A stretch of 64,000 nt of DNA, from assembly GCA_944385445.1 (NCBI GenBank), contig CALWXF010000007.1:11976-75975 (forward strand). Direction: 5' to 3'. A program made the translations under genes and the position numbers. Origin of the DNA: an uncultured Oscillospiraceae bacterium. GTDB lineage: Bacteria > Bacillota > Clostridia > Oscillospirales > Oscillospiraceae. Below the pieces are notes generated by a model, which was not told the origin of the DNA, searched no databases, and saw only the letters and a list, made by a program, of their open reading frames with translations. How positions within the stretch are numbered: the first letter of the stretch is position 1; every line of letters begins with the position of its first letter. This document shows, piece by piece, positions 51,584 to 58,998 of this stretch.

Positions 51584-51778
51584 ATGAAAGTCATCCGCTT
51601 TATCTTGAAGGCAGCCGCCGTGGCCATGGCCGTGAGCGCCGTGGTGTGTCTGGTGATGGCATACTGGGACAAGATCGTAGATACCTTCTACGCCATTGCC
51701 GACAAGGTGGAGGAGAAGAAGGCCAACTGCTGCTTCTGTTCCTCCGAGTACGACGATTACGAGGATATCGACCTGTAA
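51584..51778 (+). CDS. Small hypothetical membrane protein (64 aa)
   Basis: GGAGG RBS; N-terminal TM helix; own terminator at 51790-51820. Confidence 0.75.
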   Translation: MKVIRFILKAAAVAMAVSAVVCLVMAYWDKIVDTFYAIADKVEEKKANCCFCSSEYDDYEDIDL

Positions 51779-51881
51779 GCCAAAAAAGTGGGCCGCTGAG
51801 CAATCAGCGGCCCCTTTTTTCAAATGAAAAATAAAGAATGAAGAATGAAAATGCAGGTCCTGGGGTGCAGCGCACTCCAAA

Positions 51882-52016
51882 GCCTCCCTTGTGTAAAGGG
51901 AGGTGGGCTGACGTAAGTCAGCTCGGAGGGATTGACAGACCAGACCCTTCCGTCACCCTGCACGGTCAACCCCTCAGTCAGCCTTGCGGCTGACAGCTCC
52001 CCTTACACAGGGGAGC
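51882..52016. repeat. Family B doublet (B1 plus 51882-51936, B2 minus 51964-52016)
   Basis: Convergent pair with AAGAATG-like heptamer runs in the flanks. Confidence 0.9.
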
Positions 52017-52057
52017 CTTTTACCTGGCCATCCAGCCTTATTCTTCTTCATTTCCAT

Positions 52058-52095
52058 AAAAAAGTACGGTCAGCGTAAGCTGACCGTACTTTTTT
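52058..52095 (-). terminator. Terminator of the GH84 gene (shared family)
   Basis: AAAAAAGTACGGTCAGC-N4-GCTGACCGTACTTTTTT, arms identical to 6602-6639. Confidence 0.9.
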
Positions 52096-52108
52096 GCTTG
52101 ATGGGGGA

Positions 52109-55100
52109 TTAGCTGCGGCGCTTGCGGGTCACATAGGCGGCGCCGGTGAGCAGGCTCACAGAGCCAGCCAGAGCAGCCACATACACCATCAGCTGAGCGG
52201 AGTCGCCAGTCTGAGGCACGTTCTCGGGCTTCTCGGTGGTCTGGGGCTTCTCAGAGGCCTCGGGCTTGTCGGTGGTCTCGGGAGCGCCACCGGCGGTGAG
52301 GCCGTCCATGGCAGCGGACAGAGCGGCTACGGCGTTGTCCACAGTGGCCTGATCGTCCTCAGAGAGGGTCTCGTCCGCCATCACAGCCTGAGCAGAGGCC
52401 AGAGCGGAGCGGAACACGGCCACGGACTGGGCGGTGTAGCCGGACAGGTCGATGCTCTCGGCCTGGCCAATGAGCTCTTCCAGGATGGACTTGTCGGCCT
52501 TGAAGCGCTGGGCCAAAATGGCGGTGAGCAGGTCGTCCACAGCGGTCTCCACGTCGCCCTGGAGGGCGTCGCCGTCGTCCATGACCTTCTGACCGGCGTT
52601 CAGAGCGTCCAGCAGGTCCTGCCAGCAGTCCTTGACGTACTTGCTCTCGTTGGCAACCATGGTCTCAGCCTTGGCAATGAGCACTTCCAGCATGGTCTTG
52701 TCGCCCTGCTTCAGGCCCAGAGCCCAGATGCCCTCCAGCAGGTTGTCCCAAGCGGTGTTCACCTGCTCCTGAGTGGCGTTGGGGTCGTCCAGCACGTCCT
52801 TGGCCTCGGCCATGGCCTTCTCAAAGATGTTCACGGCGGACTCGGCCACGCCGGCGGTGTCCAGGGTCAGAGCGTACTCATAGGTGGCCTGGAGCAGAGC
52901 CTTGTTGGCCTCCTGACCGGGCTGATCGGGCACACGGGCCTCCACAGCGGCGTTCATGGCCTCCACGGCGGTGTTCAGGGCCTCCTGGGTCACGGGCTCG
53001 CCCAGGGTGTTGTCGGCCAGAATGGCCTCCACAGCGGCGATGGCGTCGTTGAGGGCGGCAATGGACTCGGCGGTGTAGCCCTCCTCAGCAGCGGCGGCCT
53101 TGGCAGCGTCCACCTGAGGCTGCACGCCGTAGGTGTTCAGAGCCACGAAGCGGTCGCCCTTGATCTCGATCTCGTTGAGGTAGATGCCGTCGGTGTAGGC
53201 GATGCGGAAGGCGGTGACGCCCTTGAGCTGGTTGGCGTGGTAGACACGGGCACCGGTGTTGCTCAGGTCGGCATCATGCTCCAGCAGGGTCTCGCCATCG
53301 GCGGTGACGGCGTACACGCTCACGCCGTCCCAGGTGCCCATGGCGTTGTACAGCACCAGGTCGTTGGCCTTGGCGCTCTCGTAGACGTGGTACACCACTT
53401 CGCCCTCGCCGGTGGCCTGGACGAAGCTCATCACGTCGCGGTCATAGAGCTTGGCCTCGCCCACGCCGTTGACGGTGGCCATGGCCTTGGCCTCGGTGGA
53501 CACGCCGTGGAACTCGGCGATCTTCAGCCAGTTGGTGGAGCGGGACTCGGTGACGGTGGCACGGATGGCCTTGGCCTGGACGGTATCGAAGCTGACGGAA
53601 ATGGCACCGCCCACAAAGTCGTCGCTGTCCACGATACCCACAGAGATCCACTCGCTGTCGGCGTTCTGGTACTCCAGGTTCACCTTACCCTTCATGGCGT
53701 CACCATCGGTGGTGGTGGTGTACTCAATGCGGTTGATGCTGGTCACGGTGTTGTAGGTGACGGTGAGGTGGGTGCCCTTGGCCTGGCTGTTGAGCCAGAC
53801 GAAGGTGGTGTTGTTGTAGTCGTTGATGTTGCTGGTGGGGTGGTTGTTGGGCTCATAGATCTGAGCGCTGGAGGTGACGGAGGCGATGGACACCACCTGA
53901 GTGGCGATGGACACCTGGGTCAGGTCCACGGAAATCTCCTCAGCGGTGTTGTTCATCACACGCACATAGCGGGCCTGAGTGCCGGCGGCAAAGCCAGTCC
54001 AGGTCTTGCCGTCCAGGGAGATCTGGACGTTCAGGTCGTCCAGGCCGGACACGGAGGACAGAGCCACCAGCTGGGCCAGGTCGAACTGGACATAGGAGCC
54101 GGAGCCCAGGGTCACGGTCTCGCCGTCGGTGACGGTGAAGGTGTTGCCGGACTTAGCCATGGCCCAGCCCTCCGTGTTGGTGTCGGTGTAGACGAAGGGG
54201 TCGGAGGCGTCAGTGAAGAAGGAGCCGCCGGCCTGGGTCATGATGTAGCGGGCGAAGGGCAGGATGTACAGAGCGCCGGGGTTGGTCACATAGTTGCTGA
54301 TGGTCTGGCTGGTGCCCTGGCCCTCCAGGCTCTCCACCTTGTACTTCTCCAGGGTGTCGATGCCGTTGGAGAGGTAGATGGCGTTCATCAGGTGATCGAA
54401 GCGCCGGCTCTCCTCGCCATACATGGCCTGGATGCAGTCGATGATGATCTGGCTCATGTCATTGAGGCGGTACACCCAGGGGCGAATCTCCTCTTCCAGG
54501 TTCACCAGCTTGGAATCATCGCTGTCCTTGAGGGTGAGGATGAGCTGGCAGGAATCCACGATCTTCTGCATCTCCTCCAGCACGGCCGGATAGTTGGAGC
54601 TGTCCGACTTGTAGGCGTTGAAGATGGAGTTGATGTTGGTGTGGTCCTGGTTCTTGGCAGCGTGGCTGGCAAACACACGCAGGGCCTCCTGCATGGCGGG
54701 GTCATCGGTGTAGGAGGCAAAGGACTCCTCCCAGTTGCTCTGGACATCGAAGTTGGCGGTGTTCCAGGTGTAGTCGGCCACACCGTACAGGGCCACCTTG
54801 GAGGCCTCAGCCTGGTTCATGGGGTTGGACAGGACGCCCAGACTGGCGGTGACGTCCAGGTCGGTGGCATACACCGAGTCGATGCGGTTCATCAGCAGCT
54901 GGTCGTCAATGTTGTCGTTGACGGGGTAGTTCCACCACATGACGGGCTTCTTACCGGTGTACTGCTGGATCTTCAGCAGGTCGGAGTTGCGGATGGGGGA
55001 CCACACGCCGGAGCCGGTCATCATCATGATGACGTTGTTGTCCTGGTTCTGCTCCCGGAAGGCGCCCAGGTTGGTCTCCAGCTGAGAGGAGGAGCCAAAG

Positions 55101-56914
55101 TTCAGGGCGTAGAAGCTGGGCACATAGTAGGTGCCGGCCACATGATCGGCGGGGTTCTCGGAGCCGTTGTAGGTGTCCTCCAGGCGGCGCTGAATCTCAG
55201 CCATCATGTAGGCCTGGTTCTCGGAGCCACGCAGAGCCACACCGGTGTCGATGTCGTCCACGAACACGCCGAACTGACGCACGCCCAGATCGTACATGTG
55301 GGAGAACTTCTCCATGATGTCGTCAATGCCCTGCTCCACGCTGTCACGGCTGGTGAAGTTGATGCCGTTTTGCATGGCGGGGTGGATGGACCAGGCAAAG
55401 GAGATGTTGTTCTCGGCGGCAGCGGCGGTGATGGTGCGCATGTCGTCCTGGGTCATCATGCCGTAGAAGCGCTGCTCGTCGGTGATCTCGGTGGGATACT
55501 CATCCCGCCAGTTGCCCAGGTGATAGGGGTCGCCCTTGGGGCCGTAGACGAAGGTGTTCATCTTGTTGTCTTCCATGTACTCGAACAGGGAGATGATGTC
55601 CTCCACAGAGTACACCTTGCCGTAGAAGCCCTCGACGATGCCACGGTACTGCATGTTGGCATAGTCCTCGATGGTGGCGCAGGTCAGCTGCTGGCCGGCC
55701 ACGGTGTCCATGGCGTCATCCAGGGTGGCCAGGCCGTAGTACACAGCGTCGTCGTCCTCACCCAGGATGGTCACACGGCCATTGGAGTTGATGTCCACAA
55801 AGTGGGCGTCATACTTGGTCTCGCTGGCCACAAACAGGTCGTCGGAGTAGCCGGTGGTGTTGGTGTCCACGTTCTCGGTAGAGCCGTGCAACCCTAACGC
55901 CAGGGTGCTCTCCTCATAGTTCTCGGTGACGGTGTAGGACACGCCCTGCTTGCCCATGATCTCCTGCACCCGGCCCTTGGTGACATCGGTGATGCCGGAC
56001 TCATAGTAGACCTTGACGTTGTCAAAGTCGATGAGGTTGTACTGCATCTCCAGCTTCTGGGGGGTGGGGTTGAGATCATAGGTGTTGTCCAGATCAGTCT
56101 GGGACAGAATGGTCACGGGAATCTCCACGTCGGCGCTGCTGCCCAGGTAGGAGACGGTGGCGGTGAGGGTGGCCTGGGTGGTGGTCTCAGGCAGGGTCAC
56201 CTTCAGCATACCGTACTCCACGGTGAGGTAGGGAGAGTCGCTCTTCCAGGTGACGGTGGCGCCGTAGTCGGTGCTCTCCACCAGGGACACGTCCCGGCTC
56301 AGAGCGTCCCACTTCTGGGCGTTCTCCAGCTGGGTCTTGGCCTGGTTGAGCACAAACTCCCAGGTGTTGTTGTACACTTCCATCTCGTAGATGGACACGC
56401 AGGTCCAGATGTCAGGGAAGTTCTCGGTGACATACACCCGGACATAGCGGGCCGTGACCTCATCAAAGGTGAGGGTGCGGGCCTCCTCGGGCTGGCCGTC
56501 GGTGACGTTGGCCACGTCGGTCCACTCATTGCCGTCGTCAGAGACCTGGACCTTGTAGGCCTTGCCGCCGGACTTCTCCCAGAACAGACGGACGCAGTTG
56601 AAGGTGGTGGGCTCGCCGAAGTCCAGGCGCAGCCACTGGGGGTTGCTCTCACTGAGGGTGCCGCTGGACCAGCGGGTGTCCATGTTGCCGTCGTTGGCCT
56701 TCTCCTGGGTGAAGTTAGAGGTCTCGTTGGCGGACGAGGCGGCGGTGGCGGTGAGGGCCAGGTTGGGGCTGGTCGCCTCATTGGCAAGGGTGGCAGCGGA
56801 GTTGGTGATCTCGTCGGCCTGGGTCTGAGGCAGGGCAGCGGCATAGCTGACGGTGGACAGACACATGGCACACACGGTGACCAGAGCGCCGACTTTCTTG
56901 GTAATCTTGCGCAT
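52109..56914 (-). CDS. Multimodular sortase-anchored GH84 beta-N-acetylglucosaminidase (NagH/NagJ-like)
   Basis: Start MRKITKK after AGGAGG; signal peptide; CBM32; GH20b-like domain; GH84 motifs RGIVEGFYG, YGPKGDPYH, FVDDI, WWNYPVND; further CBM32-like and FIVAR modules; VPQTG. Confidence 0.9.
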   Translation of the reverse strand: MRKITKKVGALVTVCAMCLSTVSYAAALPQTQADEITNSAATLANEATSPNLALTATAASSANETSNFTQEKANDGNMDTRWSSGTLSESNPQWLRLDFGEPTTFNCVRLFWEKSGGKAYKVQVSDDGNEWTDVANVTDGQPEEARTLTFDEVTARYVRVYVTENFPDIWTCVSIYEMEVYNNTWEFVLNQAKTQLENAQKWDALSRDVSLVESTDYGATVTWKSDSPYLTVEYGMLKVTLPETTTQATLTATVSYLGSSADVEIPVTILSQTDLDNTYDLNPTPQKLEMQYNLIDFDNVKVYYESGITDVTKGRVQEIMGKQGVSYTVTENYEESTLALGLHGSTENVDTNTTGYSDDLFVASETKYDAHFVDINSNGRVTILGEDDDAVYYGLATLDDAMDTVAGQQLTCATIEDYANMQYRGIVEGFYGKVYSVEDIISLFEYMEDNKMNTFVYGPKGDPYHLGNWRDEYPTEITDEQRFYGMMTQDDMRTITAAAAENNISFAWSIHPAMQNGINFTSRDSVEQGIDDIMEKFSHMYDLGVRQFGVFVDDIDTGVALRGSENQAYMMAEIQRRLEDTYNGSENPADHVAGTYYVPSFYALNFGSSSQLETNLGAFREQNQDNNVIMMMTGSGVWSPIRNSDLLKIQQYTGKKPVMWWNYPVNDNIDDQLLMNRIDSVYATDLDVTASLGVLSNPMNQAEASKVALYGVADYTWNTANFDVQSNWEESFASYTDDPAMQEALRVFASHAAKNQDHTNINSIFNAYKSDSSNYPAVLEEMQKIVDSCQLILTLKDSDDSKLVNLEEEIRPWVYRLNDMSQIIIDCIQAMYGEESRRFDHLMNAIYLSNGIDTLEKYKVESLEGQGTSQTISNYVTNPGALYILPFARYIMTQAGGSFFTDASDPFVYTDTNTEGWAMAKSGNTFTVTDGETVTLGSGSYVQFDLAQLVALSSVSGLDDLNVQISLDGKTWTGFAAGTQARYVRVMNNTAEEISVDLTQVSIATQVVSIASVTSSAQIYEPNNHPTSNINDYNNTTFVWLNSQAKGTHLTVTYNTVTSINRIEYTTTTDGDAMKGKVNLEYQNADSEWISVGIVDSDDFVGGAISVSFDTVQAKAIRATVTESRSTNWLKIAEFHGVSTEAKAMATVNGVGEAKLYDRDVMSFVQATGEGEVVYHVYESAKANDLVLYNAMGTWDGVSVYAVTADGETLLEHDADLSNTGARVYHANQLKGVTAFRIAYTDGIYLNEIEIKGDRFVALNTYGVQPQVDAAKAAAAEEGYTAESIAALNDAIAAVEAILADNTLGEPVTQEALNTAVEAMNAAVEARVPDQPGQEANKALLQATYEYALTLDTAGVAESAVNIFEKAMAEAKDVLDDPNATQEQVNTAWDNLLEGIWALGLKQGDKTMLEVLIAKAETMVANESKYVKDCWQDLLDALNAGQKVMDDGDALQGDVETAVDDLLTAILAQRFKADKSILEELIGQAESIDLSGYTAQSVAVFRSALASAQAVMADETLSEDDQATVDNAVAALSAAMDGLTAGGAPETTDKPEASEKPQTTEKPENVPQTGDSAQLMVYVAALAGSVSLLTGAAYVTRKRRS

Positions 56915-57030
56915 GGTTGATGTTCCTCCTATTCTCCTGAAATCGTGTATGGGACAATTTAGGGGATGAATCACCTCCTGGTTGGACAAGAAGAGGGGCG
57001 TGGGGAACTCCCACGGAAGAGGTACCGACG

Positions 57031-57097
57031 AAAAAGACCAGACGACACCAAAGGGGCCCATATCACAGCGATACGCCCCCCTTTCGGTACATCTGGT
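57031..57097 (-). terminator. Leader terminator overlapped by the RAT
   Basis: Minus strand ACCAGATG-TACC-GAAAGGGG..CCCCTTT-GGTG-T-CGTCTGGT-CTTTTT. Confidence 0.8.
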
Positions 57098-57119
57098 TTT
57101 GCCCATACGGTAACAATCC
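57095..57119 (-). promoter_or_regulatory. RAT (ribonucleic antiterminator) with short apical stem
   Basis: GGATTGTTACCGTATGGGCAAAACC keeps both canonical ends GGATTGTTAC and GGCAAAACC; 3' end overlaps the terminator. Confidence 0.85.
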
Positions 57120-57141
57120 TTCTTGTTGTTCACTTGCCACC

Positions 57142-57170
57142 AGTATACCACTGGAGATGGAAAAAGTAAA
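57142..57170 (-). promoter_or_regulatory. sigmaA promoter of the GH84 gene
   Basis: TTTACT-N17-TATACT with extended -10 TG. Confidence 0.75.
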
Positions 57171-57226
57171 CAAAAGAAGGATTGTTATATCTCATGAAAC
57201 TGTATGAATTATATTGTCCATTCTGT

Positions 57227-58057
57227 CTATACCAGGCCCAGCTTGGCAAATACCACCTGGGCCAGCTCGTGGCGGGGCAGAGGCCGGTCCAAGAAGTACT
57301 CCAGGGCGAAAATGGCCTGATAGATGAGCATGGGCAGGCCGTTGGCGGTCTTGAGACCCCGCTTTTGGGCCTGGTGCAGCAATTGGGTGCAGGCGGGATG
57401 GTAGATGAGGTCCATCACCCCGGCGCCACGGGGCAGGGCGTCCAGGAAGGAGAAGTCCTCAAACTGGTGGGGGCAGTCGTCCATGCCCAGGTTGGTGCAG
57501 TTGATGACCAGCTGGGCCTGGGAGCACACCTGGGAGAGGGTGCCGGGGTCAAAGCCCGCAGGGGTGAGAGTGCCGGAGGAATCCAGCTGGCACAGCTGCT
57601 GGGCCTTGGACAGGGTGCGGTTGCACACCCAGATGCGCTCTACCTGGGTCTGGGCCAGGCGCAGGGCCACCGCCCGGGCAGCGCCCCCCGCCCCCAGCAG
57701 CACCACCTGCCGGGCGGGCCATAGTCCCATATGCACCAGGGACTCCAGACAGCCGTCCCCGTCGGTGTTGTGGCCGATCCACTTCCCGTCCCGGCGGCAG
57801 ACGGTGTTCACCGCCCCGGATAGCTCCACTTCCTCCCCCAGCTGGTCCATCAGGGGCACCAGGTCCTCCTTGTGGGGCATGGTGGCGTTGAAGCCGGTGA
57901 CTCCGTGGGTCTCGGCAAAGGCCAGGTACTGGGGCACCTCCCCCTTTTTCACCAGGTGGGGGGTGTAGGGGATGTCCAATCCCAGGTAATCCAGCATGGT
58001 GGTCTGGATGATGGGGGATTTGGAGTGGAGGACGGGATCACCGATGACTTGCAGCAT
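57227..58057 (-). CDS. aroE: Shikimate dehydrogenase
   Basis: IGDPVLHSKSP; NATMPHK; GAVNT; GHNTDG; LLGAGGAARA; DLIYHP; GLPMLIYQA. Confidence 0.93.
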   Translation of the reverse strand: MLQVIGDPVLHSKSPIIQTTMLDYLGLDIPYTPHLVKKGEVPQYLAFAETHGVTGFNATMPHKEDLVPLMDQLGEEVELSGAVNTVCRRDGKWIGHNTDGDGCLESLVHMGLWPARQVVLLGAGGAARAVALRLAQTQVERIWVCNRTLSKAQQLCQLDSSGTLTPAGFDPGTLSQVCSQAQLVINCTNLGMDDCPHQFEDFSFLDALPRGAGVMDLIYHPACTQLLHQAQKRGLKTANGLPMLIYQAIFALEYFLDRPLPRHELAQVVFAKLGLV

Positions 58058-58059
58058 GT

Positions 58060-58998
58060 TCACTGTCCCCCTTTGAGGAAGAAGTCCATGGCCCGCAGGT
58101 AGCCCTGGAGGCCCAGGCCGTAGATCTGGCCCACACACCCCGAGGCGGTGACGGACACCGAGCGGAAGGGCTCCCGGGTGTGGATGTTGCCGATGAGCAC
58201 CTCGAAGGCGGGGATATTCACCGCCTGGAGGGCGTCCAGAATGGCGTAGCTGTAGTGGGCGTAGGCGGCGGGGTTGATGATGATGGCGTCGTAGACCCCG
58301 TCGGCGGCCTGAATCTGGTCCACAATGTCCCCCTCGTGGTTGGACTGGTAGCAGGTGGCGGTGGAGTTATGTATCTTGGCATACTCCTCGATCATGGTAC
58401 ACAGAGAGGCGTAGTTTCCGTGGTTTTCCCGGCCGTACAGCTCCGCATCCCCCTTGCCCAGCAGGTTGAGGTTGGGGCCGTTGATGATGAGAAATTTCTT
58501 GCCCACCTCGGAGATCTTCTCCAGAATTTCCGCAACGGTGGCCTCCGGTGAGGAAAAGTCCTGGATGATGACATCGGCGGCGGACAGGTACAGGGGCAGG
58601 CGGTGGTGGTGGCGCTCCACAAAGGCGTTGTGCCCTTCCTGGGCCAGAGGACGGCTCTCTGTGTCCAGGCTGGCGCAGATTTCGTCAATGGGGCGGTCCA
58701 GGAACACCAGAATGCCGTTGCGGCGCAGGGAGGTCACGTTTTTTCTCGACAGCACCGCCCCGCCGCCGGTGGCGATGACCAAACCCTCCTGGCTGCTCAG
58801 CTGCTCCAGCACCTGGCTCTCCAGGGAGCGGAAGCCCCGCTCCCCGTCCTGGGCGAAAATCTGGGAGATGGTGCGCCCGGTGGTCCCCTCCATCAGCTCG
58901 TCGCAGTCCACGAAGGGGCGGCCCAGCTGCTGGGCCAGCATATGTCCGGCGGTGGTTTTTCCACAGCCCATCATACCAATGAGGATAATATTCTTCAT
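58060..58998 (-). CDS. aroK: Shikimate kinase fused to a degenerate type II 3-dehydroquinate dehydratase domain
   Basis: IGMMGCGKTT; FR..E; ATGGG; then NGPNLNLLG, QSNHEG, INPAAYAHYS. Confidence 0.9.
   Translation of the reverse strand: MKNIILIGMMGCGKTTAGHMLAQQLGRPFVDCDELMEGTTGRTISQIFAQDGERGFRSLESQVLEQLSSQEGLVIATGGGAVLSRKNVTSLRRNGILVFLDRPIDEICASLDTESRPLAQEGHNAFVERHHHRLPLYLSAADVIIQDFSSPEATVAEILEKISEVGKKFLIINGPNLNLLGKGDAELYGRENHGNYASLCTMIEEYAKIHNSTATCYQSNHEGDIVDQIQAADGVYDAIIINPAAYAHYSYAILDALQAVNIPAFEVLIGNIHTREPFRSVSVTASGCVGQIYGLGLQGYLRAMDFFLKGGQ

Follow-up and report, generated by a model that had tools for sequence, protein, structure and literature searches.

The window, by which we mean the whole 64,000-nucleotide stretch that was analysed, carries a GH84 beta-N-acetylglucosaminidase gene directly behind the last gene of an aro/pheA operon, and a long inverted repeat lies in the gap between them. 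The question raised by this locus is what the repeat does. The preliminary description took it for an insulator: RNA reading through from the aro operon would pair the two arms, lose the antiterminator binding site (RAT) of the GH84 leader and stop at the leader terminator, whereas RNA from the GH84 promoter would keep a free RAT. An invertible promoter was named as the alternative, and conservation beside aroE as something to check.

All relevant genes at the locus are carried on the minus strand, the aro/pheA operon first and then GH84 (Table 1). The operon members recognized by Pfam are aroB, aroA, aroC, pheA, aroK-aroQ and aroE. From the aroE stop codon (TAG, 57229-57227) to the GH84 ATG (56914) the gap is 312 nt long, and the ribosome-binding site and ATG of GH84 (56930-56912) are located approximately 200 nt downstream of the 3' arm of the repeat. 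In the GH84 protein there are also F5/8 type C domains, FIVAR domains and an N-terminus resembling a signal peptide. Neither the terminator scan nor folding detected a terminator in the 39 nt that separate the aroE stop from the 5' arm, in agreement with the preliminary description.

Table 1 Features of the aroE-GH84 region (positions in the window).
Feature	Position	Strand	Basis
aroE (shikimate dehydrogenase), last gene of the co-directional aro/pheA operon	57227..58138	-	Pfam Shikimate_dh_N, Shikimate_DH, SDH_C
AT-rich 39-nt spacer, aroE stop to hairpin	57188..57226	-	sequence, scan, fold
Hairpin 5' arm (UAACAAUCCUUCUUUUGUUUACUU)	57164..57187	-	repeat search, fold, covariation
Predicted GH84 promoter	57142..57170	-	promoter scan
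Hairpin loop, 28 nt, with inner hairpin CCAGU-GGUAU-ACUGG	57136..57163	-	fold
Hairpin 3' arm (AAGUGAACAAcAAGAAGGAUUGUUA; bulged C 57125)	57111..57135	-	repeat search, fold, covariation
RAT, short 25-nt variant (GGATTGTTACCGTATGGGCAAAACC)	57095..57119	-	pattern search
Leader intrinsic terminator	57031..57103	-	repeat search, fold (-36.4 kcal/mol)
GH84 beta-N-acetylglucosaminidase, 1601 aa	52109..56914	-	Pfam NAGidase 5e-84
GH84's own bidirectional intrinsic terminator (A-run, GTACGGTCAGC/GCTGACCGTAC, T-run)	52058..52096	-	sequence read
Convergent 64-aa gene (51584-51775) and bidirectional terminator (about 51781-51820)	51584..51820	+	tblastn, sequence

The sequence GGATTGTTACCGTATGGGCAAAACC in the GH84 leader exactly matches the RAT consensus, an imperfect palindrome (GGATTGTTAC...GCAAAACC), in a variant with a short apex. 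The stem of the leader terminator begins at 57103 (GGCAAAACCAGA...), overlaps the 3' half of RAT and is followed by five U residues at 57035-57031; helices 2 and 3 of this stem covary among orthologues. Judged by these features, the leader is a genuine RAT-terminator system, for which antiterminator binding and relief of termination are predicted.

Six RATs were found in the genome, including those at C1:307391, C6:19787, C9:1143, C19:4407 and window position 1510. The genes behind them are two GH84 genes, a GH20 gene (window 1687), an antiterminator-EIIA-EI-EIICB operon and a classic bgl-type operon. The RAT studied here is identical to that at C9:1143, and near-identical copies precede the second GH84 gene (C1) and the antiterminator-PTS operon (C6). 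At C9:1143-1300 (locus L012), RAT and terminator are followed only by a 5-codon ORF, with no clear gene behind. CAT_RBD antiterminators gave three hits in the genome. The C6 operon, located behind its own RAT, encodes a CAT_RBD and PRD protein, EIIA_1, an EI-like ORF read from the sequence, and EIIC and EIIB. This gene content suggests a regulon in which secreted glycosidases of the mucin/O-GlcNAc type are under PTS-sensed control.

The closest described regulon is that of NagY in E. faecalis, where nagY-nagE and the secreted enzyme gene hylA are controlled by RAT-terminator antitermination (PMC9981650; review PMC12591593). Here too, the RAT overlaps an intrinsic terminator in the leader, the CAT-PRD antiterminator gene adjoins glucose/GlcNAc-type PTS genes, and RATs precede secreted enzymes that degrade host glycans. 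Unlike the RAT leaders of the BglG/SacY/LicT/GlcT type, that of GH84 has the short 25-nt variant. A term search of the 2025 antiterminator review (PMC12591593) returned no mention of an upstream structure competing with RAT in the text it covered, and a literature term search for 'anti-RAT' in the sense of a RAT-masking arm found nothing.

The promoter scan placed a GH84 promoter between the arms of the repeat, as had been described, with the -35 hexamer TTTACT (57170-57165), a 17-nt spacer and the extended -10 element TGgTATACT (57150-57142). Transcription is predicted to start at about 57135, where the 3' arm begins. The TTTACT/TGG-TAnnnT design is shared with the leader of the paralogous GH84 gene on contig C1, which has no hairpin, and with the orthologues of that leader. 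The region upstream of the -35 hexamer is not conserved in the C1-type paralogous leader of the same genomes, which argues that the 5' arm is not an ordinary promoter-upstream element. A candidate second promoter before the 5' arm (TATAAT, 57213-57208) was rejected, as it has no -35 hexamer and is lost in two relatives (G044 and G002). On the opposite strand of the hairpin region, the promoter scan found no promoter-like site.

The repeat had been described as a 19-bp inverted repeat of 14 perfect pairs, a bulged base and 5 further pairs. The repeat search and our reading of the minus strand gave the same structure, and as RNA it extends to 24 pairs. The perfect core comprises 57111-57124 and 57174-57187 (14 nt, 100% complementary, 49 nt apart), and beyond one bulged C (57125) the minus strand reads on with a TTGTT/AACAA extension. 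The RNAfold helix joins 57187-57164 with 57135-57111 and contains one bulged C and one U.G pair. The -35 hexamer is part of this helix: UUUACU pairs with AGUGAA at the predicted start, with one U.G wobble. On the minus strand the gap sequence is TAACAATCCTTCTTTTGTTTACTT at 57187-57164 and AAGTGAACAAcAAGAAGGATTGTTA at 57135-57111. The 5' arm begins 39 nt past the aroE stop, lies upstream of the predicted GH84 start and ends in the -35 hexamer. The predicted GH84 transcript opens with the 3' arm as its first 25 nt; this arm holds RAT positions 1-9, where the preliminary description spoke of the RAT 5' half. No U-tract follows the hairpin directly in the window, where the stem is succeeded by CCGUAUGGGC; among the carriers one was present only in G044 (UUUUUUU).

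Each arm is in itself a small palindrome, AACAA-N8/9-TTGTT (57111-57135 and 57164-57187). This allows the local GH84 transcript a weak AACAA/UUGUU hairpin of -3.3 kcal/mol over RAT positions 4-8, a mild built-in competitor of RAT.

We rejected a chance repeat as unlikely. The 14-mer arm has no second copy in the 2.15-Mb genome, even with two mismatches allowed; the whole genome contains just 17 perfect inverted repeats that reach 14 bp and enclose a loop of 25-100 nt, and the one between aroE and GH84 sits on one of the six RATs; the arms are also conserved above their neighbours, as detailed below. Three other identities were tried. A search of Rfam for a known RNA family gave noise alone (plant miRNA precursors at E about 0.15-0.5). 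We dismissed a resemblance to an integron attC site, as the outer boxes pair and fit poorly and there is no array, and likewise an operator of the regulon type, since the arm motif occurs nowhere else in the genome.

Folding of the read-through RNA gave -36 kcal/mol for the hairpin vs -2 kcal/mol for RAT. RAT positions 1-9 were paired to the 5' arm with a probability of 0.91-1.0, and the leader terminator still formed. Because the 5' arm lies upstream of the predicted GH84 start, the hairpin is expected only in RNA started upstream, that is, in aro read-through. In such RNA the two arms would pair, and as the 5' arm and the loop would be made first, the helix would close before the 3' half of RAT exists. 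RAT could then not fold, which would leave a BglG/SacY-type antiterminator without its binding site. The leader terminator (57103-57031) would form next, and with any sugar signal aro transcripts would stop near 57031. RNA made from the GH84 promoter would start inside the hairpin, at about 57135, and lack the 5' arm; their RAT would be free and the gene inducible. On this fold model the masking mechanism of the preliminary description is physically sound. RAT1 (window 1510) had been said to have an upstream terminator of its own and no complementary arm, and we found both to be so.

We searched relatives for the hairpin by BLAST, pattern scans and a covariance model. Carriers were six species-level genomes of the genus and five close metagenome contigs, and the conservation beside aroE is strict: the hairpin follows aroE directly in every carrier, including all six species. 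The covariance model (R1) detected one copy per genome in six of 78 genomes and nothing credible elsewhere in the genus, and on this ground a family of repeated or mobile hairpins was rejected. Both arms were invariant in G003, G019 and G046. Outside known elements, none of 32 arm positions was changed in G046 vs 16 of 63 neighbouring non-element positions (p=7e-4), and in G044 the counts were 4/32 vs 23/63 (p=0.011). Changes in the 5' arm amounted to 0/17 in G046 and 1/17 in G044. The spacer between aroE and the hairpin was changed at 5/39 and 12/39 positions in the same two genomes. The loop sequence varies between species, with 6/17 (G046) and 7/17 (G044) positions of the promoter spacer altered.

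Among eight distinct sequences, five of the 24 pairs were changed on both sides (0/500 shuffles), all of this stem covariation coming from two diverged genomes, both of them MAGs. Paired cells made up 96% across the eight sequences vs 37-61% when partners were slid. These compensatory pairs and paired cells indicate that the stem is under selection for pairing. The sense hairpin was the stronger one in seven of the eight sequences and the antisense hairpin in G044. U.G cells were about as frequent as A.C/C.A cells, which correspond to G.U on the antisense strand; thus, covariation alone does not fix the strand. We took the sense strand as the relevant one because it is the strand transcribed by the co-directional operon, which has no terminator ahead of the hairpin, and because the scan found no promoter-like site on the opposite strand.

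These data bear on whether the repeat could be a neutral leftover. Template-switch events can make perfect inverted repeats in one step, and a single such (quasi-palindrome) event might have copied the pre-RAT/RAT segment in inverted form upstream of the promoter, the repeat persisting only by close kinship of its carriers. Four of the six carrier species are indeed mutually close (75-93% leader identity), and similar short complements elsewhere, a 10-mer at C6 and another in Paenibacillus, were attributable to chance. The significantly higher conservation of the arms than of flanking non-element positions in two lineages speaks against this explanation, as do the five compensatory pairs that keep the helix where neighbouring sequence has diverged by 25-40%, and we consider it very improbable.

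The two diverged carriers are informative on function. In G044, 20-21 of 23 stem pairs are kept, with one U-A to C-G double change, one U.G to U-A change and the bulge moved by one base. Its RAT is changed at about 40% of positions and no longer folds, its -10 element lacks the last T, and the stem is followed by the U-tract mentioned above. From its sequence the G044 stem looks like a stand-alone terminator. The gene behind this leader (L094 675-3183, contig C11) encodes 743 aa with three F5/8 type C domains and no NAGidase domain.

In G002, aroE is followed by the hairpin and then by a gyrB/parE-like gene with a near-consensus promoter of its own. Neither GH84 nor the promoter hexamers of the loop were found there, nor any RAT beyond remnants. 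Of the inner pairs of the G002 stem, 19/20 are kept, with four compensatory double changes, two U.G changes and loss of the bulge. Remnants of RAT and of the leader terminator (GCAGACTGGC...GCCAGCCCTGC, no U-tract) follow the hairpin at L128 2100-2342 (contig C107), and no canonical terminator of the aro operon was evident after the hairpin in this interval. Since G002 and G044 keep the stem in the absence of a functional RAT, conservation of the stem does not depend on a RAT to disable. Moreover, as G002 keeps the stem without either RAT or recognisable terminator, a role independent of both must exist or have existed. RAT masking is thus probably not the only job of the hairpin, as read from these two relatives.

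Could the arms act as DNA instead? They might be inverted regulator sites that loop or clamp the GH84 promoter, or form a single-stranded DNA hairpin for a recombinase or transposase at the edge of the module. Their geometry would suit a protein: the arm centres are 63 bp, or six helical turns, apart, the arms flank the promoter at about -55 to -33 and +1 to +25, and each contains the small palindrome. Symmetric arm changes could mean altered protein specificity, the wobble counts leave the strand unfixed, and the element stands at an insertion boundary (see below). Against this, the arm motif is unique in the genome, the covariance model found no second copy in any of the 78 genomes, and no regulator or recombinase gene is adjacent. 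The spacers within the arms stay complementary, which protein half-sites do not require, and the shifted bulge in G044, its loss in G002 and the G.U pairs are features of a helix. The stem also persists in G002 and G044 after both have lost the promoter hexamers. We therefore regard a role at the DNA level as improbable.

The inverted repeats do flank a promoter, as in phase variation, where the arms would be recombinase sites. The invertible promoter named in the preliminary description did not survive the analysis and is practically discounted here. Between the arms there are only 28-49 nt (28 nt in the loop, 38-49 nt between the perfect arms as first described), far fewer than in known invertible segments, and no recombinase gene is nearby. 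The assemblies examined, from six species genomes and five metagenome contigs, all have the loop in one orientation, and covariation in the stem is that of a helix around a loop that is free to vary.

The history of the locus was read from relatives. In G005, G001 and G016, a convergent 64-aa gene and a canonical bidirectional terminator stand immediately behind aroE. In the window, a 64-aa gene sits just beyond GH84 and the GH84 terminator and is 98% identical to the G005 protein by tblastn. The gene order in this comparison shows that the stretch running from the hairpin to the terminator of GH84, the GH84 module, was inserted between aroE and its ancestral terminator. Within the interval 51584-57226, set against L126, L127 and L129, the module comprises leader, gene, own terminator and REP-like units. 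The insertion accounts for the lack of an own terminator behind aroE, and because of it polymerases leaving aroE run into the GH84 leader. In the aroE tree (13 genus members, loci L121-L134), G002 was placed beside G005, whereas G001 fell within the group of hairpin carriers. Monophyly of the carriers was rejected (p-AU 0.0007), for a group that was defined after seeing the tree. The scattered carriers hint at lateral transfer or other spread of the aroE-proximal module, at its recombination, or at repeated loss, as far as the tree can indicate.

An element of the aro 3'-UTR with a selected function unrelated to RAT has to be weighed at this point. It might be a barrier to 3' exonucleases, an RNase III site or a non-canonical terminator stem; the RAT overlap and the promoter in the loop would then be by-products of where GH84 landed, and masking might still occur without having been selected. 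A 24-bp duplex is long enough for processing by RNase III. For the G002 stem, processing or stabilisation is the chief competing role. Compensatory changes keep the stem in G002 although RAT, GH84 and loop promoter are missing, and G044 has kept it despite a decayed RAT, promoter and GH84 catalytic domain. The link to aroE is constant and the downstream gene varies (full GH84, truncated GH84, gyrB/parE-like), and the hairpin sits where G005, G001 and G016 have the canonical terminator. However, four of the six species have no U-tract after the stem, which thus cannot terminate alone, and the strong canonical terminator 10 nt downstream would already protect the 3' end. It is also hardly accidental that the 5' arm ends at the -35 hexamer and that the 3' arm spans the predicted +1 to RAT position 9. 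We judge a function wholly unrelated to RAT to be rather unlikely.

The reading that we prefer, with a probability of about one half, is that the repeat forms a conserved hairpin of the aro transcript, in its 3' untranslated tail and straddling the GH84 promoter, and that its primary selected role is probably aro 3'-end formation, by way of RAT masking for as long as a RAT is present. The insertion severed aroE from its ancestral terminator, and for this reason the hairpin probably serves aro 3'-end formation. It would be a device to end or trim aro transcripts after the insertion, the version in G044 having gained a U-tract of its own. More tentatively, and with the odds leaning against it, the hairpin may gate the leader by transcript origin, making the RAT terminator unconditional for RNA from outside and leaving it responsive to the signal for the module's own promoter. 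The insulator of the preliminary description thus stands in part. Selected pairing, a 5' arm upstream of the predicted start, a RAT abolished thermodynamically and an aroE gene without terminator all agree with it; retention of the stem without a functional RAT in G002 and G044, and other RAT leaders that lie behind unterminated genes and have no conserved arm of this kind, do not.

We searched 185,579 species genomes for further anti-RAT arms, taking TAACAATCC at a distance of 30-60 nt before GGATTGTTAC. The scan gave 66 matches, and a RAT stood behind the match only in the hairpin clade and at one locus of Paenibacillus massiliensis; exact anti-RAT arms of the hairpin kind were found in no other lineage among these genomes. 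At the P. massiliensis locus (L036 4930-5090), a GH1 gene has no terminator, and behind it come a 10-nt anti-RAT, a promoter and a RAT. We rejected it as a second instance: a 98%-identical relative has a broken 10-mer, more than 12 syntenic leaders have none, and the match is attributed to chance. A 10-bp inverted repeat over the start of the C6 RAT (AATCCAAGCT/AGCTTGGATT) was likewise set aside as chance, being unconserved in G005, G046 and G002. In many Paenibacillus species (loci L164-L182), no obvious terminator separates a GH1 6-phospho-beta-glucosidase gene from the promoter and RAT leader that serve a licT-like gene. From such arrangements, read-through into RAT leaders seems to be common and tolerated. 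Since a conserved anti-RAT arm is missing both from more than 12 syntenic GH1-licT leaders of Paenibacillus and from the C6 leader family, insulation is not a general need.

The closest known logic is the fold-back of the IS10/Tn10 (and IS50) transposase message attributed to Davis, Simons and Kleckner, in which reportedly only transcripts from outside promoters carry both arms. There as here, the gene's own promoter lies between complementary segments and outside transcripts alone fold; at the present locus, the promoter at 57170-57142 and the predicted start at about 57135 give an own transcript free of the 5' arm. In both cases the fold hides a signal needed for expression, so that outside transcription cannot switch the gene on, and the GH84 module, too, is an insertion behind a foreign gene. 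The two differ in what is hidden. IS10 conceals a ribosome-binding site, with an effect on translation, whereas the 3' arm here covers RAT positions 1-9, not a translation initiation region, and the effect proposed is on termination through the antiterminator site. Further, the GH84 module is no insertion sequence and has no transposase, its arms are unique in the genome, and its hairpin persists in relatives in which the hidden signal is gone. Within a passage of PMC13181058, the paper of Davis, Simons and Kleckner (1985, Cell 43:379) is cited for sequestered translation signals.

Two further systems share part of the arrangement. For int of phage lambda, sib retroregulation uses a hairpin with an RNase III site that destabilises the message, and the transcript classes differ at the 3' end (terminated vs read-through). 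As in sib, formation of the hairpin at the present locus depends on the promoter of origin and the outcomes differ for two transcript classes; unlike sib, it is the 5' end that distinguishes the transcripts here, and antitermination is the step proposed to be affected. In the aromatic supraoperon of B. subtilis, aroFBH transcripts read through into the trp leader attenuator, where TRAP regulates the upstream transcripts at the same attenuator. The likeness is that aro transcripts without a terminator of their own meet a protein-controlled attenuator in the next leader. In B. subtilis, however, no structure is known to make the attenuator unconditional for upstream transcripts.

The element occurs in six species only, with a function that we infer. 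RAT/terminator switches are textbook devices, usually described as two competing structures and a protein; a third, upstream structure that only foreign transcripts carry would extend this picture by one layer. If the masking is true, this would apparently be the first case, as far as we found, in which fold-back insulation acts on antitermination that depends on a protein. A single terminator would then be a constitutive operon terminator and a conditional attenuator at once, shared by two transcription units under different rules. The locus would also show how a newly inserted gene can be insulated and how its neighbour can regain a terminator. For annotation, it is a warning that promoters can sit in the loops of functional RNA hairpins. 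For gut ecology, the interest lies in two GH84 genes and a GH20 gene placed behind RATs, together with an antiterminator-PTS operon, in uncultured gut Clostridia (Candidatus Enterenecus).
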